26,267 nucleotides of DNA, from positions 1 through 26,267 of the forward strand of contig CAYOYE010000001.1 in NCBI GenBank assembly GCA_964408115.1, given 5' to 3'. Shown in pieces: positions 32 to 23,566 of this stretch (the stretch's first letter is position 1; each line of letters opens with the position of its first letter). The notes beneath the pieces were generated by a model. That model did no database searches. It had not been told where the DNA came from and saw nothing but the letters and a program-made list of their open reading frames with translations. The translations under genes were made by a program, and so were the position numbers. The DNA is from an uncultured Azospirillaceae bacterium (GTDB lineage: Bacteria > Pseudomonadota > Alphaproteobacteria > RF32 > CAG-239).

Positions 32-784
32 TTATTCTCTTATTTCATCTTGATTATATTTAATAACCATAAATCCCATCGGATTAATCAGACGGCGGGA
101 AATTATTGTCCGTTCCGGCACAAAACGCGGCGTAATGGATGCTTTCATCCGCTTGGTTTTAAGGGTAAGCGCGCCACCGCTGGTACGGGATTTTGATAAA
201 TTATAGATTGTAAAGTTTACATACCATGCCGGACTACTCTCACTCACTTTGCCCAATTCATCTATTCTTACCTCGCTAGAATACTCGTTATCAAACATTT
301 TTTGGATATTCTGCGCATTCATACCGACAAATTCGGCATACACCGGTTGTGCCGACATATAATGTACTATTCCGCCCGGACCCCAGCGTGTACGCATTTC
401 CTGTTCATCATTAACCACAGTATTGCGCATAATAACGTATTGTTTTATATACATTTCTAAAAGTTGTTTATATGACGGCATATTTTTTGTTATCGGCTCA
501 TAACGAACCATGGTTGCCGAATCATTTTGCGTAATTATCAAAAGCGGCTCAACTATAATTTCGGGAGCCAGCCTGAAAATAACCAATGAAGCACTCAAAA
601 AAAACGCCAGCGAAAGAATAGCGCAAAGCATAACCAAACGTGATAACCACCGAAAATAAACCAGTTTTGCCGACCCTTCTTCTTTTTTGATGTCGGTTAT
701 GTATTGAGGCTGATAATCCGGATTTTGTTTGGCATTTTTATCTGTTAATAAAAACTTTTTATTTGCGTTTCCTAACTCTACCAT
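32..784 (-). CDS. virB8: VirB8/TrbF-family type IV secretion inner-membrane protein (250 aa)
   Basis: One N-terminal TM helix (LVMLCAILSLAFFLSASLVIF), YIKQYVIMRN helix and C-terminal 'INPMGFMVIKY' matching the VirB8 NPxGFxVxxY motif. Start moved from TTG 799 to ATG 784 (AGGTG 5 nt upstream). Confidence 0.85.
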   Translation of the reverse strand: MVELGNANKKFLLTDKNAKQNPDYQPQYITDIKKEEGSAKLVYFRWLSRLVMLCAILSLAFFLSASLVIFRLAPEIIVEPLLIITQNDSATMVRYEPITKNMPSYKQLLEMYIKQYVIMRNTVVNDEQEMRTRWGPGGIVHYMSAQPVYAEFVGMNAQNIQKMFDNEYSSEVRIDELGKVSESSPAWYVNFTIYNLSKSRTSGGALTLKTKRMKASITPRFVPERTIISRRLINPMGFMVIKYNQDEIRE

Positions 785-802
785 AATGACACCTGTCAAT
801 TT

Positions 803-3800
803 TTATAACGGATATACGGCACAATACGGAGCTTGTGATTTATCGGATTGTGCATCCATCTCCTCGGCTTCGGCATCTTCATATACTTTAACCACACTCC
901 GATTTGCCTCTTCGGTTTTAATTTGCTCTTCTAAATCATCTAAATCTTCCGTACCGGTAATTTGCACAACCTCATCCGCATCTTTTTCCAAAACTTCAAT
1001 CTGATGATTTACATCTTCCAGCTTTGTATCCAAAACGCCGTTTTCATTTTGGACGGTATCTATTTTTTCAGTAGCTTCTTTTATTGCGCCGGATTTAATA
1101 TTTTCAAGTGTCTTTTCGGCTTTTTGATAATCATCGGGAATTGTCAAATCAAATTTTTCGCTATAGTCATCATCTGCCGTATCAAAAACATTTTTTAGCT
1201 CATAACCGGCTTCGGTAAACAATGTATTAAGGCTTGTACGCACATCTGCCACCTGAAGTTCCACTTTAGCTAAATTATCGGCAGCCGTTTGTTCTTGTTC
1301 CACAAAATCCAAATAATCACCCAACTGATTACGGCTATACATTGTGCGATTATATACATAAAGATTTTTATCTATATTATCGGCATTTTCGCCGGAATTG
1401 TTAATTACATAAACAGCACGCAACAATGCCTGACGAATTGTCAACTTATGTTTCGGCTCTACTCCGTAGTGATTTACCGTATCCGGATCTGTCACGCTTT
1501 CCAAAATCTGTCCTAATTCACTGGATTTAGAGGCATCACCCGTAGTATCGGTTTCCGTTGATAAAACAAAAGTTTCGCCGGATTCCGCATCTTTTAGTTT
1601 GCCACCTTGTAATGTAAGGCCTTGGCAGTCCTGCGCAATGTTAGATTCTGCAGAACTGCTGTTACCTATGGTAAATCTGATATCTTGCGAAGAAGTTGCC
1701 GGAATAACGTCTATAGTCTTGCCGTTTAGCTTACAAGGGAATATACCGCCACGCATAAGACTTTTAGCCGGATTTCCCTGATTTAGCAACGTTTCATAAT
1801 CAATTTCTTTTTCAACATACGCACGGTGTTGTAAAATATATTGCCAAATTTCCGGCACTTCCAATCCGCTATCCAAAATACTGTTGCCGATAAGCGTAAT
1901 ATCTGCATTTGATGTCGGATTATCGGATTTTTGATATTTGAGAATATCGTTATAGTCAGACAAATCAAAGTGGAACACTTCTCTCAGCGGAGCCGAGGCA
2001 AAGTCAACCGGAGCTTTCGGCGCGCGGAAATCACGTTTTTTGCCGACAATTCCAACAAAATATTCATCATCCGGTTCCGTACAATTCGTGTCTTCACATA
2101 TTTTACTAAACATATTGACAAGATTTTTTAATATGTCGGCACCACCTTTTTCGCTAATTTTGGTAAATGTTTCGGTAGCATCCAAATCTTCTAAGGTGAT
2201 ATGTGTTATGTCGTAAATCATCTGATTATGAATATCCTTTACCCGACTACTGTTTTCGCTTTTATATAATACATCATTACTGCTTAATGCCATAATTTTA
2301 TTATATGCCTCATCCACCTTGTTTATGGCATAATTACGGACTAGAGAAACTATGTCGTTAGCTTTACCGACCGTAGAAAATTTTGCAGCAATTTCCGCTA
2401 ATTTTGCCTGTGCCACAACATTTTCATAGCTACTGTTTTCTGCAGCTATCTTTTTAGCAAATTCATATTCCTTATCACTATAGGCTTTGACATATTCCGA
2501 CGTTCTTTTTTCAATTTTTTCATCAATATTATCTAATTTTTTTTGCAAATCGGATTGTTTATCTTCTAAACCTGATATGCTGATATTAGCGTCATCCTGC
2601 TTTGCCTTACCGGTCTCGCTTTTTTCACTGTTTTCGTCTACCGTATTTTTCATCTCTTCCGTTTGCGGAGCTACCTCATCTCCATGTTTCATGGTCTCAC
2701 CGTATTCTATACCTTCTTCCGCCTGAGGTGATGTATTGGTGTCAGAACTTACATCATCGCTTCCATCATTATATTTTTGATTTGCCTCACTTAGCTGGGT
2801 ATTTACAGCTTTAAGCTTATCATATATAGTCGTCTTTGCCGCACTATATCCACTTATATCATCTTGGTAGGCAGATACAATAGCATCTAATGCCGTTGCC
2901 TCCTCTTGCAACAGGGAATCTAAATTTGCCGTTGGATTATCCGATTTAGAAGATTCCAGTTTTTGTATGTCGCTACGCACACTACTACGCGTGATAATCA
3001 TACCGCTTGCATCTAATATTTGTGATAGCGGAGATATTTTATTAACGATATTTTCCAAATCCAGCACAAGCGAAAATGCCGGTGCATTCTTTATATATTC
3101 CTTAATATTGTTATATTTACCCTCTAAATACTGATTATAGAAATAACGTTGGTCATTCCACATTGCAAAAGATCTCCTTTTATTTCCGTATAATGGCGAA
3201 GATTTTTCCAAATCTTTAGATATATTGGAGATAACTTTTTTGCCCAACGTCCAATTTAATAAAGCTCTTTCTCTGGATGACGCTTCCACTTCTTCCTCTT
3301 GCGCCGGATCTATCAAACTTTGCGGTTCATCATCGCTGCTACCGCTTTGGCTCTGTTTCTTTACTTCTTCAAGAGATGTTTTTGAACTGCTACCTTCTCC
3401 GGAACTACCCTTACTGACAATATACGCATCTGTTTCAATACTACTTTCATCGGCACTCGCCTCCGAACGTAAATTATACAGATAGCTGGCTATTCCGCTG
3501 GTCGTAAGCTCACTCTTATAAACATCGGCCACGAAACACTTATGGTTCGTATCTCCTTTGCAAAGTAAATCATATAATCCGCTACTTTCACTATTATCAT
3601 CTGCCGCCCGCTCCGGTGTATAGTGGCACATCATTCTGCCGTCATAAGATGAGCATTTGTTACCAAACCAACTTTTATCAGAAGATGTATAGTACGACCC
3701 GATAAAAGTCTGCGAACATTTTATGGAAGTTTGCAGATTCTCCAATGTTTTATCATGATATGCTTTCATATTGTTATACGAAGCAAAAATCTTTAAATAG

Positions 3801-4840
3801 TCCGGCAACATCTGTTTTGCATTGTGTGCCGATATAGCTCTATCAATATATTCTTGTGCCTCGGCAATTAATTCCAAACCTTCAAAGTCTGCTTCCCGTC
3901 CGCTAACCGGAGAGGCAATTCCGGTTTTCGGCAACGTTTCAAACGATACTTCCGCATACGCTGCCGGTGAGACAATACGTCCGGCAGTTGTACCGCTCAA
4001 AGGAGTGCTTATTTCATTTGCCGAGAAGTGCCATTTAACTTTAGTTGCCATATCTTTTGATTTTGAGCCTTCGTACTCGCGTATCTGAACATTTGTATTG
4101 ATTAAACGAACGCTATCAAATTGTGCATTCATTGCCACCAAAAACTCATTATACCGCATTATTTTATCATAAATACGAACAGCAGTCAAAGCATTGCGCC
4201 ATAGGCAAACCTTATCTTCTTCTCCCTCTGTCGGACTTTGGCAGTTATATTGTTCCAACCCCTGTTCGCTACAGTCTTCTCCGGCGACCAAACACTTTTC
4301 TATATTGTCCAACTCTGCCAGCATAACCGCAAGTTCTTTTTCCATTTCCTTTGCCGTAATATACATTTCCAGCGTAGTATCAAACTTTAACTGTTCACCC
4401 TTACGTTTATAATATCGCTTTACCCATTCTTCAGAAGAGCGGTGTTGCAAGAAAAGATAAATAAAAGCCTGAGACACCGAGGTAGGATCCGTTAAGTCGG
4501 CAAGTTTGCTATCCTCTATGGTTCGGGCATACGTTATAACTTTTTGCCGTTTTACTTTATTTTTGAGGTTGCTAAAAACACTTTTACCTAACTTGCTACC
4601 ATAGGATTTCAGGCTCTGTTTAATGTTTGAAAGGTTAGCAATTTCCTTAACTTTATCAATCTGGGCATTAACCTGACTATATGTAGATGTCAGATTTGAA
4701 ATCGTAGGCGGAATACACATTGCACAAAACTGCGGACTAAACGGAATCAGCGGAGTAAAATCCGGCCAAACAAAGGCATAAACCCGTGGGCTTAGTAAAA
4801 AACAAATTAGAAAAGCCGATACTGTTATAAATTTTTTCAT
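803..4840 (-). CDS. Large secreted protein of unknown function (1345 aa) with coiled-coil segments and clustered Cys; T4SS-associated
   Basis: Long ORF, RBS GAGGGAG before ATG 4840 (MKKFITV...RVYA signal peptide), no further TM segment, lies in the operon between virB4 and virB8. Confidence is for the ORF; function unknown. Confidence 0.8.
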   Translation of the reverse strand: MKKFITVSAFLICFLLSPRVYAFVWPDFTPLIPFSPQFCAMCIPPTISNLTSTYSQVNAQIDKVKEIANLSNIKQSLKSYGSKLGKSVFSNLKNKVKRQKVITYARTIEDSKLADLTDPTSVSQAFIYLFLQHRSSEEWVKRYYKRKGEQLKFDTTLEMYITAKEMEKELAVMLAELDNIEKCLVAGEDCSEQGLEQYNCQSPTEGEEDKVCLWRNALTAVRIYDKIMRYNEFLVAMNAQFDSVRLINTNVQIREYEGSKSKDMATKVKWHFSANEISTPLSGTTAGRIVSPAAYAEVSFETLPKTGIASPVSGREADFEGLELIAEAQEYIDRAISAHNAKQMLPDYLKIFASYNNMKAYHDKTLENLQTSIKCSQTFIGSYYTSSDKSWFGNKCSSYDGRMMCHYTPERAADDNSESSGLYDLLCKGDTNHKCFVADVYKSELTTSGIASYLYNLRSEASADESSIETDAYIVSKGSSGEGSSSKTSLEEVKKQSQSGSSDDEPQSLIDPAQEEEVEASSRERALLNWTLGKKVISNISKDLEKSSPLYGNKRRSFAMWNDQRYFYNQYLEGKYNNIKEYIKNAPAFSLVLDLENIVNKISPLSQILDASGMIITRSSVRSDIQKLESSKSDNPTANLDSLLQEEATALDAIVSAYQDDISGYSAAKTTIYDKLKAVNTQLSEANQKYNDGSDDVSSDTNTSPQAEEGIEYGETMKHGDEVAPQTEEMKNTVDENSEKSETGKAKQDDANISISGLEDKQSDLQKKLDNIDEKIEKRTSEYVKAYSDKEYEFAKKIAAENSSYENVVAQAKLAEIAAKFSTVGKANDIVSLVRNYAINKVDEAYNKIMALSSNDVLYKSENSSRVKDIHNQMIYDITHITLEDLDATETFTKISEKGGADILKNLVNMFSKICEDTNCTEPDDEYFVGIVGKKRDFRAPKAPVDFASAPLREVFHFDLSDYNDILKYQKSDNPTSNADITLIGNSILDSGLEVPEIWQYILQHRAYVEKEIDYETLLNQGNPAKSLMRGGIFPCKLNGKTIDVIPATSSQDIRFTIGNSSSAESNIAQDCQGLTLQGGKLKDAESGETFVLSTETDTTGDASKSSELGQILESVTDPDTVNHYGVEPKHKLTIRQALLRAVYVINNSGENADNIDKNLYVYNRTMYSRNQLGDYLDFVEQEQTAADNLAKVELQVADVRTSLNTLFTEAGYELKNVFDTADDDYSEKFDLTIPDDYQKAEKTLENIKSGAIKEATEKIDTVQNENGVLDTKLEDVNHQIEVLEKDADEVVQITGTEDLDDLEEQIKTEEANRSVVKVYEDAEAEEMDAQSDKSQAPYCAVYPL

Positions 4841-4882
4841 TGTTTTCTCCCTCTTACGCCACCGTATTATCACTTGTTATAC

Positions 4883-6103
4883 TCATTCTTCGCCTCGTTT
4901 CAGGTCTTTATATGTGAGTTCATAACTATCCAAATCCAGCTTTGTTACATCCTTATCATAGTCGTTCAGTTTGTATTGTGTCATACTTACTATATCAGAC
5001 GCTGCGTCGTACAATATTTCTGCCAGTAGCAGTTCCGTAAAACGCGCAGCCGTCTTGGCAACCTGCACATCGCCACCGATACGCATTGCCATTGCGCCAT
5101 AAACACCGTCTGCTTCCGTAGATGTATCGGAATATGCAACTGATGTGTCGGAAATAACAGAGCTTTCGTATACGCCCTTGGTTGAAACATAAGCTAAATC
5201 CTGCAAGGCATTATAAAAAGCAATATTACGGTTGCGTTTTACTTCTGCCAAAGCATCGCCGGCGGCATATTCCTTTTCTTTCAAAAAGAATTTACCGATA
5301 GAATCCGCATATAGCTCATTATTTTCGGCTTCTTCTTCATTATTTTCATCACCGAGAATTTTAGAAAACATCTCATCTGCCATATTTTGCAGTTTTTCTT
5401 TTTGTTTTTCCACATCTGCCTGTTTTTGCACTTCCGCCAAATCTTTTTCCAAATATGTAATTATAGATTCTTTCTCTTTAACTTCTCTTTCGTGTTCCTG
5501 ATCAACCAAATTATCCGCTTGATCGGCTTTCAGTTGAGCTATTTGCTTTTGAAGTTCTTCTTTTTCTTCATCAGTCTGCGCCGCCTCTAGTTTTGCCTGT
5601 AACTCAACAAGCTGGGCATTCATTTCAATATTTTTTGCTTCTTTTTCAGCCTTAAACGATTCTTTCAAGTTCTCAACTTCAGCCTTTAGTTTAGTTAAAT
5701 CCAGAGCTGTATTTGCGTACTTCTTATTCAGAAAACGAACATTATAATTAATGGTTCCGCTGGACCAATCAACATCTATACCGGCTTCAAGTCCGTTACG
5801 AAGTGTTTTATCCATAGCTTTAGTTCCGGCAGTCGTAGCCGCGTCAACGCCTTTTTCAGCTAATTTATGGAACAAACCTGAACCCTCACCGACCATACCG
5901 TCGCCGGCTCTTTTTACCTTGCCTTCCAACTTTGTCAACGCATTGTTATATGCTTGCTGTATCTTTTGTCTTAATTTTTCTTCCAAATCCGGTATTATGG
6001 TCGTTGGCGAAACAAAATCAAGTTTGGTTATTGCGTATGATTTGCCGGAGAATAAGCAAACCGCAACAAAAACAATAGTCATATATTTTAATATTTTCTT
6101 CAT
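4883..6103 (-). CDS. Secreted coiled-coil protein of unknown function (406 aa), possibly VirB5/TrbJ-like
   Basis: GGAG RBS, signal peptide ending KSYA, central E/K/Q-rich heptad region, helical C-terminal domain. Confidence 0.75.
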   Translation of the reverse strand: MKKILKYMTIVFVAVCLFSGKSYAITKLDFVSPTTIIPDLEEKLRQKIQQAYNNALTKLEGKVKRAGDGMVGEGSGLFHKLAEKGVDAATTAGTKAMDKTLRNGLEAGIDVDWSSGTINYNVRFLNKKYANTALDLTKLKAEVENLKESFKAEKEAKNIEMNAQLVELQAKLEAAQTDEEKEELQKQIAQLKADQADNLVDQEHEREVKEKESIITYLEKDLAEVQKQADVEKQKEKLQNMADEMFSKILGDENNEEEAENNELYADSIGKFFLKEKEYAAGDALAEVKRNRNIAFYNALQDLAYVSTKGVYESSVISDTSVAYSDTSTEADGVYGAMAMRIGGDVQVAKTAARFTELLLAEILYDAASDIVSMTQYKLNDYDKDVTKLDLDSYELTYKDLKRGEE

Positions 6104-6118
6104 TGTTCCGTTCTCCGT

Positions 6119-6859
6119 CTATTTGCTTTCTTCGTCTGTTTTTTCCGTAGTAGCTATCTGACTTGCCGATATTATACTCTGTGCATTCTGCGTTTCCGTA
6201 CTTGCAATAAAGCCCAAAATAGTATTCCAACGCCCGCTGGCTCGGGTACTAACGGTTTTATATGCGTCTATGATTGTCGGCAAATCCGTCAGTTCGTCTT
6301 CTTCTTCCTGCCGCAGAGTTTCATCTTCATCCATAATGGCCTTGCGCAAAACCAAAGCCCGTCCGTATTTAAGAGCCGTATTTTCTACCATCAAATCATT
6401 TTGCTGTTTTTTAAATGCTGCCATAGCCGCCACATCATCGTTTAGGCCGCTTTTAATGGTATAATTTTCATCAACGGCCTCTTGCAACTCCGCGGTAACT
6501 CCGCCATTGCTCAATTTGGAAATTATACCTCCGATTGTAAAATCCTGACTATTGATGAGTTTATCCCGAGTTTCCGTTAAGACGCCGTCTATCGTCTGTT
6601 TTACTTGCGACTTTACCGTATTACCGATATTTTTGGCTGTATTACGCAGGTTCTTCAGTTTATTTAGGTTTTCACGATTAAGACTCGCTGACTGTAGTTG
6701 TTTTTGAACAGCCTCCAATTGTGACTGCACCTTGTTTTCTGCCTCCTGTGCCGTAGACAATATTTCCTGAATATTTGAGGTAAAGTCCAAATCGGCCCAT
6801 ACTTCGCGGGGAAGCAGAATCGCAACTAATACCAAGGTTATGTTAATTACTTTAATCAT
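6119..6859 (-). CDS. Secreted helical protein of unknown function (246 aa), possibly VirB5/TrbJ-like
   Basis: AGGGA RBS, signal peptide ending EVWA, Q/K/E-rich helical sequence. Confidence 0.75.
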   Translation of the reverse strand: MIKVINITLVLVAILLPREVWADLDFTSNIQEILSTAQEAENKVQSQLEAVQKQLQSASLNRENLNKLKNLRNTAKNIGNTVKSQVKQTIDGVLTETRDKLINSQDFTIGGIISKLSNGGVTAELQEAVDENYTIKSGLNDDVAAMAAFKKQQNDLMVENTALKYGRALVLRKAIMDEDETLRQEEEDELTDLPTIIDAYKTVSTRASGRWNTILGFIASTETQNAQSIISASQIATTEKTDEESK

Positions 6860-6891
6860 CTTACATCCCTCAACCAGACAGTTTCAGCTCC

Positions 6892-8214
6892 TTACTGACA
6901 ATGGCTCATATCCGCTGTAGTACAATTGCCATCAAAGCAAGCCACACACGAAGATCCGGATTTATAAAATCCATCCTCACAGTCATTGCCGTCGTCGCCA
7001 CATTTTCCCGTCTCCGCATCAACAGAAACTCCGTCATGATATTCGCTATCCGACGATGTTGAGCTGTTAGCGCTTGCCGTAACCTGAACAGCACCAGCGT
7101 CACCGCATGATGAGGTCGGCACATCTGCACTTGAGCAGCCTTTACCTTCTATACATAATACACATGTTTTCAAGTCTGATGTATAGTAATATCCGTCTTC
7201 ACAATCTACCCCACCGCATGTGTTTGTGTCCGGATCGTATGTTGCAACGGAATGGAAACTATAGTCACTTGATTCCTCGGTTGTTTCGGTGCTATCGGCT
7301 GTATCACCGTCGCTGCTTTCTTCGGTATTATCGGCAGCTTGCGTATATTCCGTTCCGCCAACTCTGGTACATGTGCCATCTTTACATGTAACTACAGCTT
7401 CACTGTCTGATGCGTCAGAGAATGTGCCGTCCGGACAAGTAAAGTACTGTTTCTCACAATTAGCGGTATCCTCTGTTTCGCCTTTACAAACATTGCGCAT
7501 ACATTGATTTTCGGTGTTATACACTATGTCGCCCAAATAAGGTGTTTCTTTCTTATAATCGGCAGTTGTCGTTTCAAATTTATTTGTAACATCTGACGTG
7601 CTATCGGAAGAACTACTATCGTCTTTCTTTTCATCTTCTTTTGTTTCGGTTTGCGAAGCCGCATCAGCCAAAACTTGCGCATTTAAACGATCTATGCCGT
7701 CAAGAACGGTTAGTTTCAGTTTTTCGGCATATAAATCACGCATACTGTTAATCACATCCGTCAGAACGGAAATGGTATTAATAATCGCGGCATTATCATC
7801 ATGTTCCGTTTGGGTCTGTGAGCTGGCATCCGACATAGAAGTCTGTACATCGTTATAGTTAGAAATCGCGGCACTTTTGCTTATTGCTAATGCCAACACA
7901 TCCACAATCATATCATATTTCATCTGTGATAGGTCTTGCTTACCTTCGGTAGCAACCTGCGCATCCGAATTATTGATTTTGGCGGCAATTTTATTAATGC
8001 AATCGGCTAACAGGGCCTTATTACTAATAAATTCCTCGGCATTTCTCTTACAAAATATTGCCATAGAATTAGGGATAAGCTGCTTTCCGTTATACACTCC
8101 GGTATAATCAACATCCGCCTCACTCGTGGTTTCTTCTGCCCAAATCGGGCTACAAAGTGTCATCACACTTAGCAAAACCGTTAATAAAATATTTTTCTTT
8201 ATAATTTTCATCAT
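6892..8214 (-). CDS. Secreted protein with a helical N-domain and three 6-Cys C-terminal modules (440 aa)
   Basis: Start moved to ATG 8214 (AGGA overlapping the upstream TAG); signal peptide ending PIWA; 18 Cys in the C-terminal ~215 aa. Confidence 0.8.
   Translation of the reverse strand: MMKIIKKNILLTVLLSVMTLCSPIWAEETTSEADVDYTGVYNGKQLIPNSMAIFCKRNAEEFISNKALLADCINKIAAKINNSDAQVATEGKQDLSQMKYDMIVDVLALAISKSAAISNYNDVQTSMSDASSQTQTEHDDNAAIINTISVLTDVINSMRDLYAEKLKLTVLDGIDRLNAQVLADAASQTETKEDEKKDDSSSSDSTSDVTNKFETTTADYKKETPYLGDIVYNTENQCMRNVCKGETEDTANCEKQYFTCPDGTFSDASDSEAVVTCKDGTCTRVGGTEYTQAADNTEESSDGDTADSTETTEESSDYSFHSVATYDPDTNTCGGVDCEDGYYYTSDLKTCVLCIEGKGCSSADVPTSSCGDAGAVQVTASANSSTSSDSEYHDGVSVDAETGKCGDDGNDCEDGFYKSGSSCVACFDGNCTTADMSHCQ
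6895..7539 (-). repeat. Three intragenic Cys-rich modules (about 7369-7539, 7105-7257, 6895-7041)
   Basis: Modules 2 and 3 align: DPDTNTCGGVDCEDGYYYTSDLKTCVLCIEGKGCSSAD / DAETGKCGDDGNDCEDGFYKSGSSCVACFDGNCTTAD. DNA similarity is still visible (atccgtcttcaca vs atccatcctcaca). Module 1 is more diverged but also has six Cys. Confidence 0.7.
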
Positions 8215-8224
8215 AGCGCAATTC

Positions 8225-8917
8225 CTATAGATTAGGGATACTATTTCCAACTTGATTCAGAGCATCGCTTGTTGTGTCTGTAATCTGATTTTGGATTTGA
8301 TTTACCTTACTGTTTGTTATATCGTCAGCTTTATCGGTCACCCAAGTAAAGGTTTTATTTGCCGTTTTTGCAGCCTGTGCTTTACCTTGTCTTACGGCCC
8401 AATTATATGCCTTACTAATTCTTTCTTTAACGCGTAATTTTCGTGTTTCTTCTACAGCCTCATCTGCTGCATCAGACGCCTCCTCCGCTTGTTTCTGTTT
8501 TGTCAGGGCATTGGCTTTTGACTCAACATAGGCCTTAGCTTTAGCGACATATTTTTCTTTTTCTCTATTGGCTTTTTCTTTGGCAAAATTAATAACGCTG
8601 TTTTCCGCATTTTTCACTTCTTCACCAAAACGGTTATATAAAGAGCCTTTAAGACTGTTTATACCGGATTTGACATTGGAAAACAATGCGCCGGCCGCTC
8701 CACCGAATCCGCCATGTTGAATTTCTTTCAAAACGTTGATATTGGCAATGTTCTGCCAGCTGTTTGTTACCTGTGCCATCGCGATTTTTTTGACTTCCTC
8801 GGCAATACGCGCCACATCAAATGTCGGCAAAGGAAAGGCATAGCTCCGCGTAGGATAGCTTATGGCAAACAGGCTGATAACTATTACAACCATAATATTT
8901 TTTACACCGCTATTCAT
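8225..8917 (-). CDS. Secreted Ala/Lys-rich helical protein, VirB5/TrbJ-like N-terminus (230 aa)
   Basis: GGAG RBS before ATG 8917; signal peptide ending RSYA; mature start FPLPTFDVARIAE resembles the VirB5 'PVxDxAxxA' start; directly follows virB4. Confidence 0.65.
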   Translation of the reverse strand: MNSGVKNIMVVIVISLFAISYPTRSYAFPLPTFDVARIAEEVKKIAMAQVTNSWQNIANINVLKEIQHGGFGGAAGALFSNVKSGINSLKGSLYNRFGEEVKNAENSVINFAKEKANREKEKYVAKAKAYVESKANALTKQKQAEEASDAADEAVEETRKLRVKERISKAYNWAVRQGKAQAAKTANKTFTWVTDKADDITNSKVNQIQNQITDTTSDALNQVGNSIPNL

Positions 8918-8991
8918 GACAATCTCCAAATAGTCTGCTTTTCAATAATTCTACCGCAAATTTTGCGAAAAATAAACAATTTTCGTAAAAC

Positions 8992-11421
8992 CTAGGCAAT
9001 ATTTAAATATTTTGTAATAAATCCGTCCTCTCCATACTCTTGGATTAGCTGTTGTACCAACAAAACATTTTTACGGCCGGAGTTGTAAATACGCAAATAT
9101 TTACCCAATCCGCCTAAATTTACGTCAAGAATCACCGATTCTCCGGTTACCGGACGCGATAACAAAATTGCATACGGAAAATCACGATAACTCTTACCGA
9201 AAATAAAATCCAACTCGCTTTGCGTTAAGTTCCAGTTGGCATAATCTTCTATCTGCGCCTGCGGGTTGCGGAAGAAAATCACCGTTTGACATTGACCGCG
9301 GATAACCTCGCCTACCCCTAATTTATCAATAATGTTCGGCTGTTGGAAAGCACATAGATAAGCCTGACGTTTTTTACGTCCCTCTTGCAAACCGATCATA
9401 AAATAATCTCTAAACATCGGGTGTTTTAACATTGGCGCCGTTTCATCAATCATAATCAAAGACGGCACACCGGTTTCGCCGGTTTCACTCTGAATACGGT
9501 GCATAATATAACTGATAACGGCAGGTGCCAGATTTTCATCTTCAAAAATATGCGTAAAGTCAAAGGCCATAAAGCGGCGGCTTTTCAAATCCAAACTATC
9601 GGTATCGCCGTTAAAAATTGCCCCATACTGGTCAGGATCTACCCAGCGGTGTATCTCGCGGCGCATTTTGCCGGTCGGAGAAAAACAACTGGTTTCCAAA
9701 TTACGCAACAAACGTTCATTAGGGCGCAAATAGTTAAACGCAGTTGTTACGGCACGCGCCACTTCGCTATCTGCCAGCGCATCATCTACCATTGTTATGG
9801 ATTTTAGCCAACGCCGTAAAAAGGCCCTGTTTTCTTTTGTATCATTACAATCAAACGGATTAAGCGACACGTTTTTTTCATCACCGTCAAACCCGATATA
9901 TGCGCCTTTTACCGCGCGGGTAAATATTTGCGCACCCAAGTGACGATCAAAGAAAAATACGCGCAAATCACCATGTCGCATAGCCTGACCTGCCAAAAAC
10001 GTCAGCAAAGTTGTTTTACCTTGTCCGGTCGGACCGATAATACAGCAGTGAGCCACCGCCGAATCTTCACTGGAAACGTGAAATTGAAAACGATATGCCG
10101 AACCTGACATAGTGCGGAATACCGAAATAGCACCATCGCCCCAGTCGCTTTTGCTAAAGCCCTCGGCAGGTCTGTCTAAAGTGATACCCATGGCAATTAC
10201 GCGTGACAAATAGCGATATGTCCGCGGATAAGTGTCGTAGGTTGGAAATTGTGTAAAGAACACAGCCTGATTTACCCAGCCTTCGCGGACCGGCGTAACA
10301 CCAAAGGCACGACAAATTCGTTGCACTTCGGATTCACCGAAACTTATCTCTTCCATATTGGCGCCTTTAAGGATTATGGTCATAGAATATTCACATAAAG
10401 ACTGGTAATTATTATCGCTATCATCAATAGCCGCCAACGCTTCCGAATATTGATCAACCACGCCGGCAGAAAAGCTGGTAATCATAGCCATACGCTGTTG
10501 CTGAACTAAAAGCATACGTCCTTCGGCGCGGAACAACGGACGGATATTGTGCAATATTACCATTTCGCAATCAATGGCATTTAGGGAGTAAATCATACTT
10601 TCGTCCATTGCGTCACCGCTCACGCGAATCCCCATAGCAATTTCATAAAGTTCTTTTTCGCCGGAAAAAAACTTAATAATGCCTTCTTCTTTTGTAAAGT
10701 GTATGTGGTCCGCAGTCAGCATTTCGCACAGCCTTGCGCCCTCGGTATTCCGAACTTTCGGTTCCGGTTTGGAAATCGGGCTGCATAAATGCGAAAATAA
10801 ATAAAACGGGCTGTCTATCGCTTTGCTTTCATCCGTTTCATACATTGGGCTGACTCCGTAGTCGCCTAAAGTAGAAATAAGGCTTTGAGAAGCATAGTTC
10901 AAATCTTTAATAGCATCTTTACGGTCAATAACCGACAAAACAATATAGTGCTGATTGCTATAAACGTGATTCATATTTTGAAACCATATCTCAGATATTT
11001 CTTCCAACAGCGGATTGTTAAAATCACGTTTTTCTTTTTCCAATGCCACCCTGTCACGCGTAGTAATCACCCGACAAATCACCTGCATATTGGATAAATC
11101 GTCAATAAAAGCCTTTCGGGCCTCCATCATGGAATATACCGCCTCGGCGGTTGCCGATGACAAATCCACGCCTTTAAGCCGGAATACGCGGGCATACGAG
11201 CTGTTACTACATTGAATTGTTACGCCGTCCGACATAAGTTTACTGAACGGTAAAAAGTCCGAAACACGAGATTCACGCGGCTGGGGTAATACCCAGTTAC
11301 CAAATCGGGAAGACAGTAATACGGCAAATGATGCCGCCGAAATAATACCAATCAAAGCAACGGCTATTTCAACGTTGCTTAATCCCTGAACGAATATACT
11401 GAAAAAATCATAATTATTCAT
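8992..11421 (-). CDS. virB4: VirB4 type IV secretion ATPase (809 aa)
   Basis: Walker A GPTGQGKTT, 'FFFDRHLGA', 'NPF', Walker B LIMIDE, 'QEGRKK', TVIFFRNP motifs; ATGA overlap with the virB3 stop. Confidence 0.95.
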   Translation of the reverse strand: MNNYDFFSIFVQGLSNVEIAVALIGIISAASFAVLLSSRFGNWVLPQPRESRVSDFLPFSKLMSDGVTIQCSNSSYARVFRLKGVDLSSATAEAVYSMMEARKAFIDDLSNMQVICRVITTRDRVALEKEKRDFNNPLLEEISEIWFQNMNHVYSNQHYIVLSVIDRKDAIKDLNYASQSLISTLGDYGVSPMYETDESKAIDSPFYLFSHLCSPISKPEPKVRNTEGARLCEMLTADHIHFTKEEGIIKFFSGEKELYEIAMGIRVSGDAMDESMIYSLNAIDCEMVILHNIRPLFRAEGRMLLVQQQRMAMITSFSAGVVDQYSEALAAIDDSDNNYQSLCEYSMTIILKGANMEEISFGESEVQRICRAFGVTPVREGWVNQAVFFTQFPTYDTYPRTYRYLSRVIAMGITLDRPAEGFSKSDWGDGAISVFRTMSGSAYRFQFHVSSEDSAVAHCCIIGPTGQGKTTLLTFLAGQAMRHGDLRVFFFDRHLGAQIFTRAVKGAYIGFDGDEKNVSLNPFDCNDTKENRAFLRRWLKSITMVDDALADSEVARAVTTAFNYLRPNERLLRNLETSCFSPTGKMRREIHRWVDPDQYGAIFNGDTDSLDLKSRRFMAFDFTHIFEDENLAPAVISYIMHRIQSETGETGVPSLIMIDETAPMLKHPMFRDYFMIGLQEGRKKRQAYLCAFQQPNIIDKLGVGEVIRGQCQTVIFFRNPQAQIEDYANWNLTQSELDFIFGKSYRDFPYAILLSRPVTGESVILDVNLGGLGKYLRIYNSGRKNVLLVQQLIQEYGEDGFITKYLNIA

Positions 11422-11705
11422 GGTTCAAACTTATTACCTCTGACGCTATATAAATTTTTGCTTCTCTTACTTGTTTGTCCGTATGCCTGCATCATTGTAG
11501 ACAGATGCGGTTCTTTTATGCCGGCATAAACCAGCCCCAGATGTGCAAGAATAATGGTTGTAACAAAGACCAGCGGGTTTAAATCGGCACTTAATCCCAT
11601 AAAAAGCACCGGAAACTGAACGCCCAAATTTATAACACAAGGAACCATCGGAGCCCACAAAACTTTGGGAGGTTGAGCAACTGCTTTTAATATATCTTCG
11701 CGCAT
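11418..11705 (-). CDS. virB3: VirB3-family protein (95 aa)
   Basis: 'KAVAQPPKVLWAP' start resembling the VirB3 TRPxxxxGVP motif, two hydrophobic segments, size, and position overlapping the virB4 start. Confidence 0.8.
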   Translation of the reverse strand: MREDILKAVAQPPKVLWAPMVPCVINLGVQFPVLFMGLSADLNPLVFVTTIILAHLGLVYAGIKEPHLSTMMQAYGQTSKRSKNLYSVRGNKFEP

Positions 11706-11706
11706 T

Positions 11707-12144
11707 TTACCTTCTCCGTTGTAATTTTTCTCTTAACGCCAGCACTATTGCTTTGTCCCGAACATTCTGCGGTGTCAACTCTCTAAACAAAGCGTATATT
11801 CCGCTATCCGGAAGTTTTTTCAGCTTTGTCGGTACGGCAACCCGTTTTTTGGTATCTTTCAAAATATCTTCCATTAGTTGCTGTGTTCTACCGGCTTCGC
11901 TATCTACCATTTTTTCTATTTCGCTCATATCCGGATTTGCACCAACCTTAGGATTACGGGCTACTAATTCATCAATTTTCTTTAGTTTTTTAATGGAAAG
12001 GCTACCGGTTGCATTCAGACGATACAGATTTGTGTTCTGCTCTCCGGCGGTAAATTCCGCCTCACCCTCCACCTTATCTTCAATATAAGAAAAAGCCGAT
12101 AGAGGGAATAAACAAATCAGCCCCAAAAACAACCAAAATTTCAT
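11707..12144 (-). CDS. Secreted hypothetical protein (145 aa)
   Basis: RBS GGGGTAGG, signal peptide MKFWLFLG...SAFS, stop 1 nt from the virB3 start. Confidence 0.7.
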   Translation of the reverse strand: MKFWLFLGLICLFPLSAFSYIEDKVEGEAEFTAGEQNTNLYRLNATGSLSIKKLKKIDELVARNPKVGANPDMSEIEKMVDSEAGRTQQLMEDILKDTKKRVAVPTKLKKLPDSGIYALFRELTPQNVRDKAIVLALREKLQRRR

Positions 12145-12157
12145 CTGCCTACCCCGT

Positions 12158-12538
12158 TTATTTTGATACCGTTACCGTAGACGGGTCAATTGATTCGTCG
12201 TTAAAGCTGGCGGAAGATGCCGCTACACCGCCTATCCAAGAAGTATCGCCGCCTTTTTGAAATGACGTTACAACATAGGTCATACAGGTAAGGGTAAAGC
12301 AGCTCAACATAATGTATGCCAGCGCTTTCCAAGAAATTTTGTTGAAAATTGCCGCCAGCGAAACCGCTACCAAACCAAAACCGGCAATCAGATATCCGGT
12401 TTGTCGCAAGCCACCGCCAACGGCGCCGGCTTGTGCTGCCAACGTTGCAAAGACATCGGCTTTAGCCGTTACCGGTAAAAACGTAATGACTAGGGCGATT
12501 TGTAACTCGGTCAAAAATTGAAATAACCTGTTCTTCAT
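12158..12538 (-). CDS. virB2: TrbC/VirB2-family pilin, copy 3 (126 aa)
   Basis: Long leader ending AKA, two hydrophobic helices separated by AIFNKISWKAL; RBS AAGGAGAGG. Confidence 0.75.
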   Translation of the reverse strand: MKNRLFQFLTELQIALVITFLPVTAKADVFATLAAQAGAVGGGLRQTGYLIAGFGLVAVSLAAIFNKISWKALAYIMLSCFTLTCMTYVVTSFQKGGDTSWIGGVAASSASFNDESIDPSTVTVSK

Positions 12539-12549
12539 TATTCCTCTCC

Positions 12550-12867
12550 TTAATCAAGACCTTCTATGCTGGCTCCGGTCAACTGTGTTGTTTCGGCGGC
12601 ATACGAAATCACAAAAATTCCCAGCATAATAGCCACCAGCCATTTCCAGTTAAAGTTACCGAACATTCCGCCGATACAAACACAGGCTATACCAATGGTA
12701 GACGCCGGATAAATTATAGAACGCAGGCCTTTGAAAATTGTTTTGCCGGCGTCATCAAGAGCCTCAAAAACAGCCCAAGCATCTGCCGTATATAAAAATA
12801 AAGACAGAAACAACACCAGCGTGTATTTATGGTTATTGAGAAATTTCTTTATTTTAATGTACGACAT
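12550..12867 (-). CDS. virB2: TrbC/VirB2-family pilin, copy 2 (105 aa)
   Basis: Leader ending AWA, two hydrophobic helices with loop GMFGNFNWKWL; RBS GGAG. Confidence 0.8.
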   Translation of the reverse strand: MSYIKIKKFLNNHKYTLVLFLSLFLYTADAWAVFEALDDAGKTIFKGLRSIIYPASTIGIACVCIGGMFGNFNWKWLVAIMLGIFVISYAAETTQLTGASIEGLD

Positions 12868-12896
12868 AATTTTTCTCCGTTATATTTTTTTGCAAC

Positions 12897-12918
12897 GGAG
12901 GGAGCTGCAGCTCCCTCC
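12897..12918. other. Perfect 22-bp palindrome GGAGGGAGCTGCAGCTCCCTCC; stable stem-loop between pilin 1 and pilin 2
   Basis: Equals its own reverse complement; starts 12 nt after the first pilin stop. No U-tract follows on the coding strand, so it is not a classic intrinsic terminator. Confidence 0.85.
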
Positions 12919-12930
12919 ACGTTAGGTAAA

Positions 12931-13305
12931 TTAGAAGCTACCATCATATCCCATGTTATAGCCGCTGTTGCCACCTAAGCTATCTTTAAAGTTAGTTCCT
13001 GTTGCATTCTCCGTATTAGCGGCATAGTTTACAACGGCACCGGCGGCGGCCACTAAAGCCAAACCGAAAGCCAAGGTTGCTAACCACGGCCATTTAATCT
13101 TACCGAAAATTGCCTGAAACGCCAAGGCCACCAAGCCGAAACCGCCGATAACGAATATAACCATTTTGGCATTTTTAAATAAATCAACCAATTTGGATGC
13201 TGCAACTCCGAATACGGTCGTAGCATAAGAATCACCCATCATTACCAGCGTAAACAAGAACACCATTGCGGTAATATTAAGGATATTATTTTTAAAGTAC
13301 TTCAT
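12931..13305 (-). CDS. virB2: TrbC/VirB2-family pilin, copy 1, likely the major pilin (124 aa)
   Basis: Strong RBS AGGAGG, leader ending SYA, two hydrophobic helices with loop AIFGKIKWPWL; first gene of the operon. Confidence 0.8.
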   Translation of the reverse strand: MKYFKNNILNITAMVFLFTLVMMGDSYATTVFGVAASKLVDLFKNAKMVIFVIGGFGLVALAFQAIFGKIKWPWLATLAFGLALVAAAGAVVNYAANTENATGTNFKDSLGGNSGYNMGYDGSF

Positions 13306-13594: not shown

Positions 13595-13678
13595 AAAATT
13601 AATAGTATTCTAAACGGCAAAGACGGGATTATTGTGCCTTATCGGCAAGGATAGTCCTGCATTTACAAGGTGTTAGTG

Positions 13679-15265
13679 ATGCCAAAATTTGGTTTGAAAT
13701 GCTTTTTAGGAAGTTTTATTTGCTCCTTGGGGGCCGTATATGCGGCAACCGAGGTGTATTTAACGCTATCCGCAGAGCAGAAAAATCAGGTGGCGGTAAT
13801 TAGCGAAAACGAGCCGAAGGATATTGAGCTTTTTGCCGATAATGAGGAAAGTGACGCTATTTACGAAAAATTGCGTACGGTAAACACCCCAAAGACCGAT
13901 ACCGCCGTTAAGGTATCTGACAAAGGTATAAAACAGCCGGCGACAGCCAAGTCGGAAGCGCAGGAAACACTGCCGGTTAATATAGAAAAAACAGAAGAAA
14001 AAGTTGCCCTGCAAAGCGACATTCTTTATATGCCGGAAGATGATGATGACGATAGTCCGGCTGTCGTAAGCACAAAGCCTTATGATGTGGCAGATAACAA
14101 TACGCAAGACTCCGAAGCGGTGCAAACTGCCGATAATACCGACACTGTAGCTCCGGAAGACGAAGAATTGCAGATAGCAGACGCGGCAGAAGCTCCGGTT
14201 TATGTTATTCCGCTGATACATAACTATCAGGTAAATCCGACCAACGTGGCCGTTTCTTCACAATCGGAAAATAACCGAATTGCGATGGCCTCCCAAAATG
14301 TCAGCATAGATAATCTGGGAATAGAACAACCGCAAAATGATAAGGCGATAATAGACAGCCCTTGGGATACGGCAGAGACCGCTAACAAGCATATTACCAA
14401 AAATAGGCTGGATGATTTTAATAAAGAACATCAAAAAGACGTTGCCGCGTTAGATAAAAACGAACATAAGGAGGCACAATCCGATAAGGAAACGCAAGTT
14501 GCCTATAAGATGATGAGAAATCAGGTAATTCCGATTCCTGACGAAATAATGAATGACGAAAATCTGACGCCCCAGCTGGCATATTCGGAAGAAAATAAAA
14601 AAATTGAAAAAGCGTTGTTAAAAAAGAAACAGGAACAGGCAGAGCATAGTCCGGCGACTCAAAGCACAACTAATGCCAAAGCTATGACCATACCGAATAT
14701 CCGTAAAGAAAAAACCGCGGCGGAAAAACAACCTGCCAAAGAAACGACAAAGGCAAAGGCAAAGTCAAAGAGTTTATCCGACAGTATTGCCGCGTGGTTT
14801 TCCGGTTCGGATGATAAATCGGCAGATGAGGAAGTATCCGAAGAAATTGCCAAAAATACCGAGAGAAACAGCGGCACTTCGTCTTCTTTCAGAAAATTAC
14901 TCGGGATAAACGGGGGTAAAGACAGCAATATTGCTCCGACAGAGTTAAAACTGTTTTTCCAACCGAATCGTGCGGAAATTTCCGGTCAAACCTTGGAATG
15001 GCTGCACGCTTTCGCCGAAAATGTCATTAATAACGAAAATGTTATAATAGAAATTCGGATTGACGGTTCTACCGCCTATGAGTTACAAAAGAAAAGGTTA
15101 AACCTTTTATACACGATTTTGGCAAATAATAATGTAGATTATGATAAAATTAACATAATTTTTACCGATAGAGAGCCAAACTCATTTATTATTAGAAATG
15201 TTATATATGCAACCGAAGAAGAATTACTAAAAGCTACAAGAAAGGCAGATAACCCATGGTTTTAA
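13679..15265 (+). CDS. Exported protein with a long low-complexity region and a degenerate OmpA-like C-terminal domain (528 aa)
   Basis: ATG 13679 follows AAGGTG; signal peptide ending AVYA. The C-terminus 'LFFQPNRAEISGQTLEWLHAFAE...IEIRIDG...LQKKRLNLLYTIL...VDYDKI' follows the OmpA/MotB pattern without GHTD. Confidence 0.65.
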   Translation: MPKFGLKCFLGSFICSLGAVYAATEVYLTLSAEQKNQVAVISENEPKDIELFADNEESDAIYEKLRTVNTPKTDTAVKVSDKGIKQPATAKSEAQETLPVNIEKTEEKVALQSDILYMPEDDDDDSPAVVSTKPYDVADNNTQDSEAVQTADNTDTVAPEDEELQIADAAEAPVYVIPLIHNYQVNPTNVAVSSQSENNRIAMASQNVSIDNLGIEQPQNDKAIIDSPWDTAETANKHITKNRLDDFNKEHQKDVAALDKNEHKEAQSDKETQVAYKMMRNQVIPIPDEIMNDENLTPQLAYSEENKKIEKALLKKKQEQAEHSPATQSTTNAKAMTIPNIRKEKTAAEKQPAKETTKAKAKSKSLSDSIAAWFSGSDDKSADEEVSEEIAKNTERNSGTSSSFRKLLGINGGKDSNIAPTELKLFFQPNRAEISGQTLEWLHAFAENVINNENVIIEIRIDGSTAYELQKKRLNLLYTILANNNVDYDKINIIFTDREPNSFIIRNVIYATEEELLKATRKADNPWF

Positions 15266-15313
15266 ATTCTGACGCTTGCTATTTTGATTTTAACCTGTTA
15301 ATAGGAAAATACG

Positions 15314-16096
15314 ATGATAAAAAATTTTGAAAAAAACATCATACTGAATAAGGCCATCATAGCCGGTATACTGTGCAGTATCTTCGGGCTTTCTGCCTGT
15401 GTCAGCAACAGAAGCTATCTGGAAGAAGAATGCGAAAGCGGAATTTGTACAAGTAATCAGGAATATAAAGAAGATTGTACGGAAACTCCGGACGGCTACA
15501 GTATTTGCGAAGATTCTCCGGAATATGTAAATTATACAAAGACAGCCGCCGATTTCAGAAAATACGGTGAGAGAACGCCGCGTGATCGTCGTATTACACA
15601 GGCGCGGGCAGGTAATAATATTTCCGCGTCCGTACCGCCTAGCATTGATGACGAAGTACTTGATTATGAGGCCGAAGTATCCGGATCCGGACAGCGCAAT
15701 CTTGATTATATTCAGTCAACGGATGCTAACGGATATACCCAAAGACAACCGTATGCCGAAGAGCCGGTAATGTTAGAGGGACAAGAACAAAAAGAAGAAA
15801 AGCCTCAAGAAGCCGAAGAAGAAAATCAGAGCAAAGATTGGCTCGCCGAAGAAGGTCAGAGCTTAAAAGAACTTTTGACACAATGGAGTGACGAATCCGG
15901 TTGGCGCCTGATTTGGAAAACGAATCGTAACTATACCTTAAATGCCGGTGCAATGTTCAGAGGTAATTTCGCCGATGTGTCTTCGGCTCTGGTAAGAGCT
16001 TTTGCCCGCGCCAGACCGGCTCCGGTAGCTACATTTTATAAAGGTAACCGCGTCTTGGTAATTGAAACAATGGAGGACGAAAATGCGTATGACTAA
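15314..16096 (+). CDS. TcpQ-domain lipoprotein, PilL-like (260 aa)
   Basis: Lipobox LSAC; C-terminal 'WLAEEGQSLKELLTQWSDESGWRLIW...FRGNF...YKGNRVLVI' matches the TcpQ domain pattern. Confidence 0.85.
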   Translation: MIKNFEKNIILNKAIIAGILCSIFGLSACVSNRSYLEEECESGICTSNQEYKEDCTETPDGYSICEDSPEYVNYTKTAADFRKYGERTPRDRRITQARAGNNISASVPPSIDDEVLDYEAEVSGSGQRNLDYIQSTDANGYTQRQPYAEEPVMLEGQEQKEEKPQEAEEENQSKDWLAEEGQSLKELLTQWSDESGWRLIWKTNRNYTLNAGAMFRGNFADVSSALVRAFARARPAPVATFYKGNRVLVIETMEDENAYD

Positions 16097-17699: not shown

Positions 17700-17715
17700 T
17701 TTGAGGAGAACGGAA

Positions 17716-20590: not shown

Positions 20591-20597
20591 TAGTGTG

Positions 20598-22427: not shown

Positions 22428-22437
22428 GGAGGATTAA

Positions 22438-23556
22438 ATGCCTGAAGTAAAAAAGACAAGTGCCTATAACAGGGCTATGCGCAATAACAATGAATGGGTT
22501 GTTACATACGCCAAAATTATGTGTTCTATCTCCAACAAAGGAAGATTAAAAATATATCGTAAACTGGCGGCCTTATTGCGCAACCGATTTTCTTTGATGA
22601 ATTCGCTGGAAATGATTTATAACGGCTTGTCTGATGAGGGGAGACACCCAAATTCTCCGTTAGCTGTGGCAATTTGTGCATGGGGACGCTCACTGCAGGA
22701 AGGTCATCCGTTTTCCGATTGTCTAAAAGGTTGGGCCCCAAACCGCGAACGACTAATGCTTTCGGTTGGTGATGTATCGGACTTGGAAGATGCTTTGCTA
22801 AACCTTATTAAAGTGTCGGAAGGTTCTACACGAATGATTCGTCCGATTATCAGCGCCGTAACCTACCCGTCTTTCCTGCTTATGATGTCAGTACTTATTA
22901 TGTACGCTATCGGTGTTTATATGGTGCCGCCAATGTTAAGTGCCGCCCCTAATACCATCTGGACGGGTACTGCCAAAACCTTAATTAACCTTTCGGAATG
23001 GATACAGGTCAACTGGTTGACGGCATTTATGATTTTTCCGGTTATTGCTACAATAATCTATGTTACTATCGGCTACTGGACCGGTCCTATACGGGTTAAA
23101 TTTGACCGTTTTCCACCATGGTCATTATATAAAATCTTTACCGGTATCACCTGGTTGTTGGCCCTTTCTGCCTTAATTAAGGGCGGTGTGCCGGTTTCGG
23201 TTGCCTTATCTTCACTGCGACGGGATTCCAGTCGTTATCTTAAAGAACGGATTGACGGAGCATTATTCCACATTAAAAACGGTGAAAACCTCGGACAATC
23301 TTTAGATAAGGCCGGACACGAATTTCCGGATAAAATGATTATTGCCGATTTGAAGATTTATTCGGAATTGGATAACTTTGAAGAAGCTCTGGATAAACTG
23401 GCTAACGAATGGTTGGAAGAATCCGTATATATGATTGAACAAAGAGCCGAAATTTTGAATATGGTGGCAATGCTCGCCGTATCTGGTATTATTGCCTGGG
23501 CCGTATTCGGAACGTTTGATATGCAAGATCAAATCACCAGCTCTATGGGTAAATAG
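22438..23556 (+). CDS. pilR: Type IVb pilus inner-membrane platform PilR, GspF family (372 aa)
   Basis: AAGGAGG RBS; two GspF-like helical repeats and three TM segments; follows the ATPase. Confidence 0.9.
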   Translation: MPEVKKTSAYNRAMRNNNEWVVTYAKIMCSISNKGRLKIYRKLAALLRNRFSLMNSLEMIYNGLSDEGRHPNSPLAVAICAWGRSLQEGHPFSDCLKGWAPNRERLMLSVGDVSDLEDALLNLIKVSEGSTRMIRPIISAVTYPSFLLMMSVLIMYAIGVYMVPPMLSAAPNTIWTGTAKTLINLSEWIQVNWLTAFMIFPVIATIIYVTIGYWTGPIRVKFDRFPPWSLYKIFTGITWLLALSALIKGGVPVSVALSSLRRDSSRYLKERIDGALFHIKNGENLGQSLDKAGHEFPDKMIIADLKIYSELDNFEEALDKLANEWLEESVYMIEQRAEILNMVAMLAVSGIIAWAVFGTFDMQDQITSSMGK

Positions 23557-23566
23557 AGGTGCTAAA

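Follow-up and report, generated by a model that had tools for sequence, protein, structure and literature searches.

The pili of type IV secretion systems (T4SSs) grow from a pentameric stalk made of VirB5 and VirB6, and the build of systems with many VirB6 copies, such as the rvh system of Rickettsiales, or of those without a recognisable VirB5 is a standing question. In the locus described here, an rvh-like layout with five VirB6 proteins coexists with an apparently diverged VirB5 and four exported partners, and the whole set belongs to the core of an order. The locus lies on the minus strand of contig C1 of a metagenome-assembled genome (MAG) of an uncultured Azospirillaceae bacterium (1.07 Mb in 236 contigs, 41% GC, about 90% complete); the window analysed is this entire contig, 26.3 kb. 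Between virB4 and virB8 it carries five consecutive genes, here called A to E, which a first-pass annotation, made from the sequence alone, had placed in the virB5/6/7 slot and described as possible diverged VirB5-like paralogues. What are these five proteins, and which VirB functions are left for them to perform? Our leading, still tentative, reading is that A–E are Sec-exported, non-membrane, mostly helical accessory subunits of a single chromosomal VirB/VirD4-type T4SS, A being a diverged VirB5, C, D and a hairpin region of B being VirB5-derived, and E being a partner specific to the lineage.

The five-gene block and its products

The block is bounded upstream by the gene of the VirB4 ATPase (8992–11421, minus strand; Pfam PF03135, E=1.1e-13) and downstream by the first of two virB8 copies (32–799, minus strand; PF04335, E=1.5e-12), where the contig stops. 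The ORFs have the sizes and places originally given: A (8225–8917; 230 aa counted from the ATG), B (6892–8214; 440 aa), C (6119–6859; 246 aa), D (4883–6103; 406 aa) and E (803–4840; 1345 aa), all on the minus strand. Their junctions are tight, with spacers of 11–42 nt, and 74 nt separate the virB4 stop from the start of A. Protein A is helical; in B, a helical hairpin region lies N-terminally, while the C-terminal half is acidic and contains 22 Cys residues; C is all-helical and VirB5-sized; D is a coiled-coil protein ending in a helical hairpin; and E consists of several domains.

All five products appear to be exported. At the N-terminus of each lies a single hydrophobic segment, which is strong in all but D, where it falls below the Kyte–Doolittle cut-off of 1.6; no second segment with a Kyte–Doolittle mean above this value was found in any of A–E. 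Cleavage sites, read from the sequence, place the leader ends at SYA (A), IWA (B), VWA (C), SYA (D) and VYA (E). The earlier description of leaders ending in x-[Y/W]-A and of proteins lacking a polytopic membrane domain was thus correct, and the mature N-termini and helical strings that it quoted are all found in the translations. The aromatic residue at position −2 is not conserved among the A orthologues, while the N-terminal motifs are conserved inside each of the five families.

VirB6 and VirB7 are encoded elsewhere

Five VirB6/TrbL-like ORFs of 1092, 896, 462, 661 and 664 aa, with 4–7 hydrophobic segments, stand in tandem on another contig of the same genome (C6:52–12475, minus strand), with two small ORFs (166 and 133 aa) between them. 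VirB6 arrays were present in 30 of 31 genomes of the family and were multi-copy in most of the 31. Comparison of coordinates in relatives that have both on one contig places the array about 24–34 kb from the operon.

In five relatives, two VirB8 genes lie about 350 nt apart, and a lipoprotein ORF of 62–63 aa is found between the copies (L097:12325–12516 and L132:16403–16591, both on the plus strand). It has a lipobox, LSAC or LAAC, and a conserved ELKLSPCAC motif, and is a likely VirB7. The downstream operon in a relative reads VirB8a, the VirB7-like lipoprotein, VirB8b, VirB9, a 1375-aa beta-flower repeat protein, a 1414-aa VirB10-like protein and VirB11. In the genome of the window, the second VirB8 (on C84), VirB9, the beta-flower repeat protein, the VirB10-like protein and VirB11 are encoded on contigs C84 and C9. 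In this part of the operon (L097:13296–19176, plus strand, in the relative; C84 and C9 in the window's genome), VirB9 ends in a peptidoglycan-binding SPOR domain, and for outer components of a VirB-type system the beta-flower repeat and VirB10-like proteins that follow are of unusual size.

Since VirB6 and VirB7 are present elsewhere, VirB5 is the sole canonical function left for the virB4–virB8 interval. The proposed filling of the virB5/6/7 slot therefore holds in that ORFs occupy the interval, but VirB6 is found on contig C6 and the VirB7-like protein, in relatives, between the virB8 copies. A second T4SS standing beside an rvh system was also considered and rejected: the genome has a single VirB4, one VirB10-like gene and one VirB11, and the contigs join up with the window. 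VirD4 is likewise encoded once.

Protein A as a probable diverged VirB5

Three lines of evidence link A to VirB5: the position of its gene, the motif at its N-terminus and a controlled comparison with a VirB5 profile. Like members of the VirB5 family (TraC of pKM101, TrwJ of R388, Agrobacterium VirB5; PF07996), A has a Sec leader and about 200 aa of mature protein, is encoded directly after virB4, starts its mature part with x-P-[TV]-x-D-x-x-x-[IL] and, according to its structural model, is all-helical. A-type proteins sit directly after virB4 in the related loci as well.

Right after the leader, TrwJ of R388 and 22 diverse VirB5 proteins drawn from Pseudomonadota genomes all carry [GQ]-[IV]-P-[VT]-x-D-x-x-x-[IL]-x-Q. 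Mature A starts with FPLPTFDVARIA in the window and, in other genera, with FGIPAIDVQALAQAI or QWPTLDIAAI, which is a start of the VirB5 type. With an 18-position matrix, the window's A scored 6.3 bits exactly at the mature N-terminus, against an own-genome 99th percentile of 5.0. The share of sequences above the own-genome 99th percentile was 36% in the A family (maximum 31.7 bits), compared with 1% for C, 6% for D and 5% for E. The window's C, D and E scored −4.8, −8.5 and −0.1, respectively, so that the motif is absent from C and D and borderline in E; it is specific to A.

A profile of the 22 VirB5 proteins was run on 474 ORFs of related loci at E≤1e-2. It matched 19 of the 58 A-family members, with a best E of 1.3e-7, scores of up to 26.3 bits and colinear alignments over up to 190 profile positions, and far smaller shares of the other families: 3 of 63 for B, 4 of 68 for C, 1 of 68 for D and 2 of 56 for E. 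None of the 79 VirB4 proteins and none of the 74 other ORFs were matched. Among 5180 decoy ORFs from the own genome the top score was 6.6 bits, and among reversed sequences it was 9.0 bits. A first profile, built from one Roseobacter lineage, was too narrow and was replaced by this one. An HHalign comparison of the A family, signal peptide included, with VirB5 gave a probability of 73.5% (P=3e-5), with reversed controls at 0.14 or above. From the position, motif and profile we infer that A is the diverged VirB5 of this system.

The AlphaFold model of A (pLDDT 72, pTM 0.35) contains helices at residues 35–66, 73–176 and 180–225, and a Foldseek search of the PDB with it returned generic helical matches or nothing; a fold search with such long helices neither supports nor excludes VirB5. 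Curated models were scanned against the five window proteins together with 69 C-family and 59 A-family members. Seven A-family members matched DUF4141; in L087, the only one for which the position was seen, the match falls in the Ser-rich C-terminal part and not at the N-terminus. Otherwise, only coiled-coil noise was obtained from Pfam and NCBIfam. The window's own genome contains no PF07996 match. A word-based homologue search with a strongly VirB5-like member of the A family found two proteins only.

A weak hairpin signal common to B, C and D

If A is VirB5, are its partners related to it? All-against-all BLASTP of A–E gave no significant pair. An HHalign link between the N-termini of A, C and D (65–76% over the first 50–80 columns) fell to 0.5–0.7% when the leaders were removed and was discarded as a signal-peptide effect. 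A link of D to A and C by iterated hidden Markov models, which came from signal peptides and coiled coil, was likewise dropped after leader removal.

With mature sequences, the top local HHalign alignments of B with C, B with D and C with D are colinear and fall on the helix-loop-helix region marked in the first-pass annotation. The values are P=0.0018 (probability 15%) for B–C, P=0.0066 (6%) for B–D and P=0.0059 (6%) for C–D, against 0.22–0.57 for reversed-profile controls of these pairs. Among 30 reversed-profile decoys the lowest P was 0.0045, followed by 0.032. The hairpin of C also aligned with the C-terminal hairpin of VirB5 (P=0.0012; reversed controls 0.05–0.15), and the B–C and C–VirB5 alignments lie below all 30 decoys. 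A few members of the C, D and E families scored 12–17 bits with the VirB5 profile, against a reversed-sequence maximum of 9. Taken together, the alignments give a weak but consistent signal for a hairpin of about 90–120 residues common to B, C and D. The helix-loop-helix segment proposed earlier for four proteins was thus weakly recovered in these three pairs, but not in E.

The AlphaFold model of C (pLDDT 80, pTM 0.52) has helices at residues 26–59, 62–103, 113–116, 123–133, 142–187 and 193–245, that is, a long kinked helix (26–103), two short helices and a well-predicted hairpin (142–245). C is similar to VirB5 in size and is modelled with a long helix, a small appendage and a C-terminal hairpin, the last of which aligns weakly with that of VirB5. 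Fold searches with this model (Foldseek against the PDB, AFDB clusters and Swiss-Prot, and a VIA-wide search) found generic helical proteins only, and D, used as query against look-alikes in the ESM Atlas, retrieved nothing usable.

Protein E, an order-specific T4SS-bound family

Protein E consists of an N-terminal module (residues ~23–260), a conserved Cys-containing region extending to ~600, a coiled coil (~600–850) and a conserved C-terminal region that ends in a PYCAxY motif. In an alignment of 50 sequences, 21 columns are invariant, and the conserved blocks lie in the N-terminal 600 and C-terminal 500 residues. In the PDB, the central part matched only coiled coils. A profile of residues 23–600 retrieved 283 cluster representatives among 1.84 billion, with the same architecture in all matches listed, and two of the most distant members listed are still flanked by virB4 and virB8. 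E is present in 198 of 201 genomes and in all 22 genera of the order. It is an order-specific, T4SS-bound protein family and probably a large partner of the other exported proteins.

A single in-frame stop (TAG or TAA) was noticed in the N-terminal region of the E gene in three genomes of one genus (G741:C2:20281–21366, G726:C2:60747–61829 and G783:C6:55792–56859); it could be a sequencing error, or the gene could be split or have become a pseudogene.

Shared ancestry or unrelated additions

Several observations weigh against a VirB5 origin of the set. The window's A belongs to the more diverged members of its family and reaches only E=3.4 with the VirB5 profile; the HHalign alignment of A with VirB5 spans only about 20–61 columns; and no match to PF07996 or to the NCBIfam VirB5/TrbJ models was found at E≤0.1–1 in about 130 family members. 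In contrast to known VirB5 proteins, all members of A–E stay below the Pfam and NCBIfam thresholds; in A, confident alignment is confined to the first 20–60 residues, and the model is an extended coiled coil rather than a compact bundle. Foldseek and VIA searches with the A and C models list no VirB5, TraC or CagL entry. The hairpin P-values (0.001–0.007) are marginal at HHalign probabilities of 6–19%, and profile comparison gave no link of E, its N-terminal module included, to A–D.

These points bear on a second explanation, in which only A is related to VirB5, while B–E are unrelated, lineage-specific structural additions to the envelope-spanning machine or to a surface coat, comparable to the extra periplasmic components of the Cag (Cag3, CagM, CagT) or Dot/Icm systems, and resemble one another merely as helical and coiled-coil proteins. 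The lack of BLASTP similarity, the loss of the N-terminal signal with the leaders, the restriction of the VirB5 motif to A, a best decoy P that is lower than two of the three hairpin values and the isolation of the E family all agree with it, as do the other giant components of the operon, namely the beta-flower repeat and VirB10-like proteins. It is nevertheless somewhat unlikely in our judgement: the three hairpin alignments are mutually colinear and coincide with a region that had been picked by eye, two of the comparisons outperform every decoy, and the C, D and E members noted above exceed the reversed maximum of the VirB5 profile. In addition, core-complex additions in other systems are usually well conserved, while B–E diverge fast.

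We tentatively keep the reading of A–E as T4SS subunits that are in part VirB5-derived. Under it, C, D and the hairpin of B would probably be ancient paralogues that arose from VirB5 and have retained nothing of it but the C-terminal hairpin; a VirB5 ancestry of the four partners of A is no more than suggested. Of the paralogue family of five proposed at the outset, a VirB5-like A and a faint B/C/D hairpin with its C–VirB5 counterpart are left, while E stays unlinked and no pair is recognised by BLASTP.

Conservation, selection and modularity

Scanning of species-representative genomes with VirB4 yielded 222 relatives at 74–89% identity, all of them MAGs of uncultured gut, rumen or faecal Alphaproteobacteria. 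A few relatives labelled Firmicutes or Bacteroidaceae seem to be mislabelled bins. L011, L012, L021 and L059, titled Eubacteriales, [Ruminococcus] gnavus, Bacteroidaceae and Lachnospiraceae, carry the locus with VirB4 identities of 75–89% and are probably mislabelled bins rather than transfer events. The T4SS belongs to the core of an order of uncultured Alphaproteobacteria from gut and rumen, whose genomes measure 1.2–2 Mb.

In every locus long enough for judging, the virB4–virB8 interval holds 4–6 exported non-polytopic ORFs, and two more distant metagenomic loci have 4 and 7 ORFs ahead of E, which gives 4–8 such ORFs over all related loci examined. D is kept at the same position in about 68 loci. 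Between species, VirB4 is 74–89% identical (80 related loci), VirB8 40–73% and A–E only 22–40%; orthologues of A–E are often missed by BLASTP.

Could the interval then be degenerate, with A–E as decaying or chance reading frames? The absence of a database family, the low-complexity and coiled-coil composition and the rapid divergence would fit such a view, but it is effectively refuted by selection and conservation. In nine close pairs analysed by the Nei–Gojobori method, dN/dS was 0.06–0.23 for A–E in all genes and pairs measured, 0.02–0.05 for VirB8 and 0.00–0.02 for VirB4 (0.09 in one pair). The reading frames of the block are intact in about 70 species, the gene junctions are tight, and E has 21 invariant columns and occurs in nearly all genomes of the order. 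A–E are real genes under purifying selection, with far looser constraint than the core; their amino acid sequences evolve about 10 times faster than that of VirB4. No gene-wide positive selection on A–E was detected in the nine pairs.

The families are modular, with variable domains appended to conserved helical N-terminal parts, in line with the different appended domains proposed earlier. In 32 more distant loci, the A-type N-terminal part and the B-type C-terminal part form one protein of 440–810 aa directly after virB4, in which the first ~280 residues match the A profile and the last ~250–300 match the Cys-rich part of B. In other genera, A-type proteins thus differ from known VirB5 proteins by a Cys-rich C-terminal domain. 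B can be read as a Cys-rich, target-binding half that has become separated from a VirB5-adhesin protein, whose two halves are still joined in other genera. In the closest relatives, C orthologues bear an additional C-terminal domain, which brings them to 430–590 aa. The N-terminal module of E is encoded as a separate ORF of 220–264 aa with its own leader in L063, L071, L078, L080, L081, L082 and L085. In L079 (10001–12427, plus strand), VirB4 is split into ORFs of 368 and 435 aa.

Comparison with known systems and a possible mode of action

The closest precedents are partial. In the Trw system of Bartonella, VirB2 and VirB5 occur in variable copies (PMC12857230). As in Trw (trwL/VirB2, trwJ/VirB5), several divergent VirB2 proteins, three in this case, are combined with variable exported proteins in the VirB5 region of a chromosomal system of a host-associated bacterium, and both can be read as a surface structure diversified for target binding. 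However, the Trw copies are recent, clearly paralogous and tandem, and were co-amplified with virB6 and virB7 in a system without VirD4, whereas here VirD4 is present and the five proteins are of ancient origin, differ widely in size (230 to 1345 aa), are mutually almost unrecognisable and are kept as distinct orthologous families across the order. Tandem recognisable VirB5 paralogues of the Trw kind were not found among A–E, with no BLASTP pair and HHalign probabilities of at most 15% for mature sequences.

The rvh system, which lacks VirB5 (PMC2653234), resembles the present one in gene layout: five VirB6, two VirB8 copies that flank a small VirB7 lipoprotein, and several VirB2-like genes. 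Both are encoded on the chromosome and conserved by vertical descent in Alphaproteobacteria with reduced genomes. Rickettsia has its five VirB6 genes after virB3–virB4, exactly where A–E sit here. Unlike rvh, which has a duplicated VirB4 and no secreted array, this genome has one VirB4, followed by a VirB5-like gene and four others.

In Helicobacter pylori, CagL, CagI and CagH provide a case of a VirB5-like protein with neighbouring exported partners serving a surface structure and host-cell contact. The Cag partners have a C-terminal motif in common, which is not seen in A–E, and no sequence or fold match to them was found. The claim that no described T4SS class has this arrangement thus has to be qualified by the variable VirB2 and VirB5 of Trw and the five VirB6 of rvh; the locus is a variant T4SS and not a new class of machine.

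In the R388 system, a VirB5 pentamer stands on a VirB6 pentamer with the N-terminal part of VirB5 pointing out, and is pushed out on the growing VirB2 filament (PMC9259494). By analogy with this model, A–E, once exported by Sec, would dock on the VirB6 platform in the periplasm and be pushed outward on the growing VirB2 filament, and their variable C-terminal domains would be exposed at the tip, touching the target cell. Such exposure would account for their rapid divergence and domain shuffling. A–E are candidate surface proteins, which probably decide which cells these abundant gut bacteria touch, and the locus offers a natural system for asking whether paralogue expansion leads to heteromeric stalks or tips.

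One could go further and imagine the five VirB6 paralogues as one heteropentameric platform, on which up to five VirB5-derived proteins (A or A–B, C, D and the N-terminal module of E) would each sit on a specific VirB6 pair. We regard this as a long shot. If it were true, the tip would be asymmetric and carry several different target-binding domains at once, and the fivefold VirB6 of rvh in Rickettsiales might have the same explanation.

A different role, as cargo, should also be weighed. Pertussis toxin provides the precedent for Sec-dependent T4SS cargo (PMC12857230), and A–E could similarly leave the cytoplasm through Sec, come together in the periplasm as a multi-subunit exoprotein and then be released through the T4SS, the route that pertussis toxin takes with Ptl. 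All five proteins are hydrophilic with Sec-type leaders, their genes lie inside the T4SS operon much as ptx adjoins ptl, and fast evolution with variable domains is expected of proteins that meet a target. Yet A retains the N-terminal signature and position of VirB5, a VirD4 coupling protein is present here and absent from Ptl, and no toxin-like or enzymatic domain was found in A–E by Pfam, NCBIfam and PDB profile searches, all of which makes the cargo role improbable. Pertussis toxin itself has reportedly been proposed as a VirB5 analogue.

Operon organisation and neighbouring genes

On the minus strand, the operon comprises three VirB2-like genes, a gene for an exported protein of 145 aa, virB3, virB4, A–E and virB8, up to the contig end. 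The VirB2-like genes (12158–13305) show mutual similarity at E=1e-4 to 3e-7 (BLASTP), and one of them has a weak TrbC match. The 145-aa exported protein (11707–12144) is encoded between the third VirB2 gene and virB3 (11418–11705), all on the minus strand. It has no family match; its identity is 25–42% in the closer relatives, and BLASTP loses the more distant ones.

The 74-nt spacer between virB4 and A (8918–8991, minus strand) contains two similar direct repeats, TTTTACGAAAATTG and TTTTTCGCAAAATTTG, 18 nt apart, followed by TAGAAT and a GGAG ribosome-binding site, and judging by these elements it may hold an internal promoter of the five-gene block. A generic promoter and terminator scan gave nothing above chance and did not flag this spacer. 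A TGTAACA box was not enriched here and was absent from promoters.

Divergent from the T4SS operon, a plus-strand cluster at 13670–24109 looks, from a reading of its translations, like an R64-type (PilL–PilS) type IVb pilus cluster. It encodes a lipoprotein, a secretin-like protein, a 610-aa ATPase, a polytopic platform protein and a pilin-like ORF. The T4SS operon and this pilus-like cluster, two surface machines by this reading, have one intergenic region in common.

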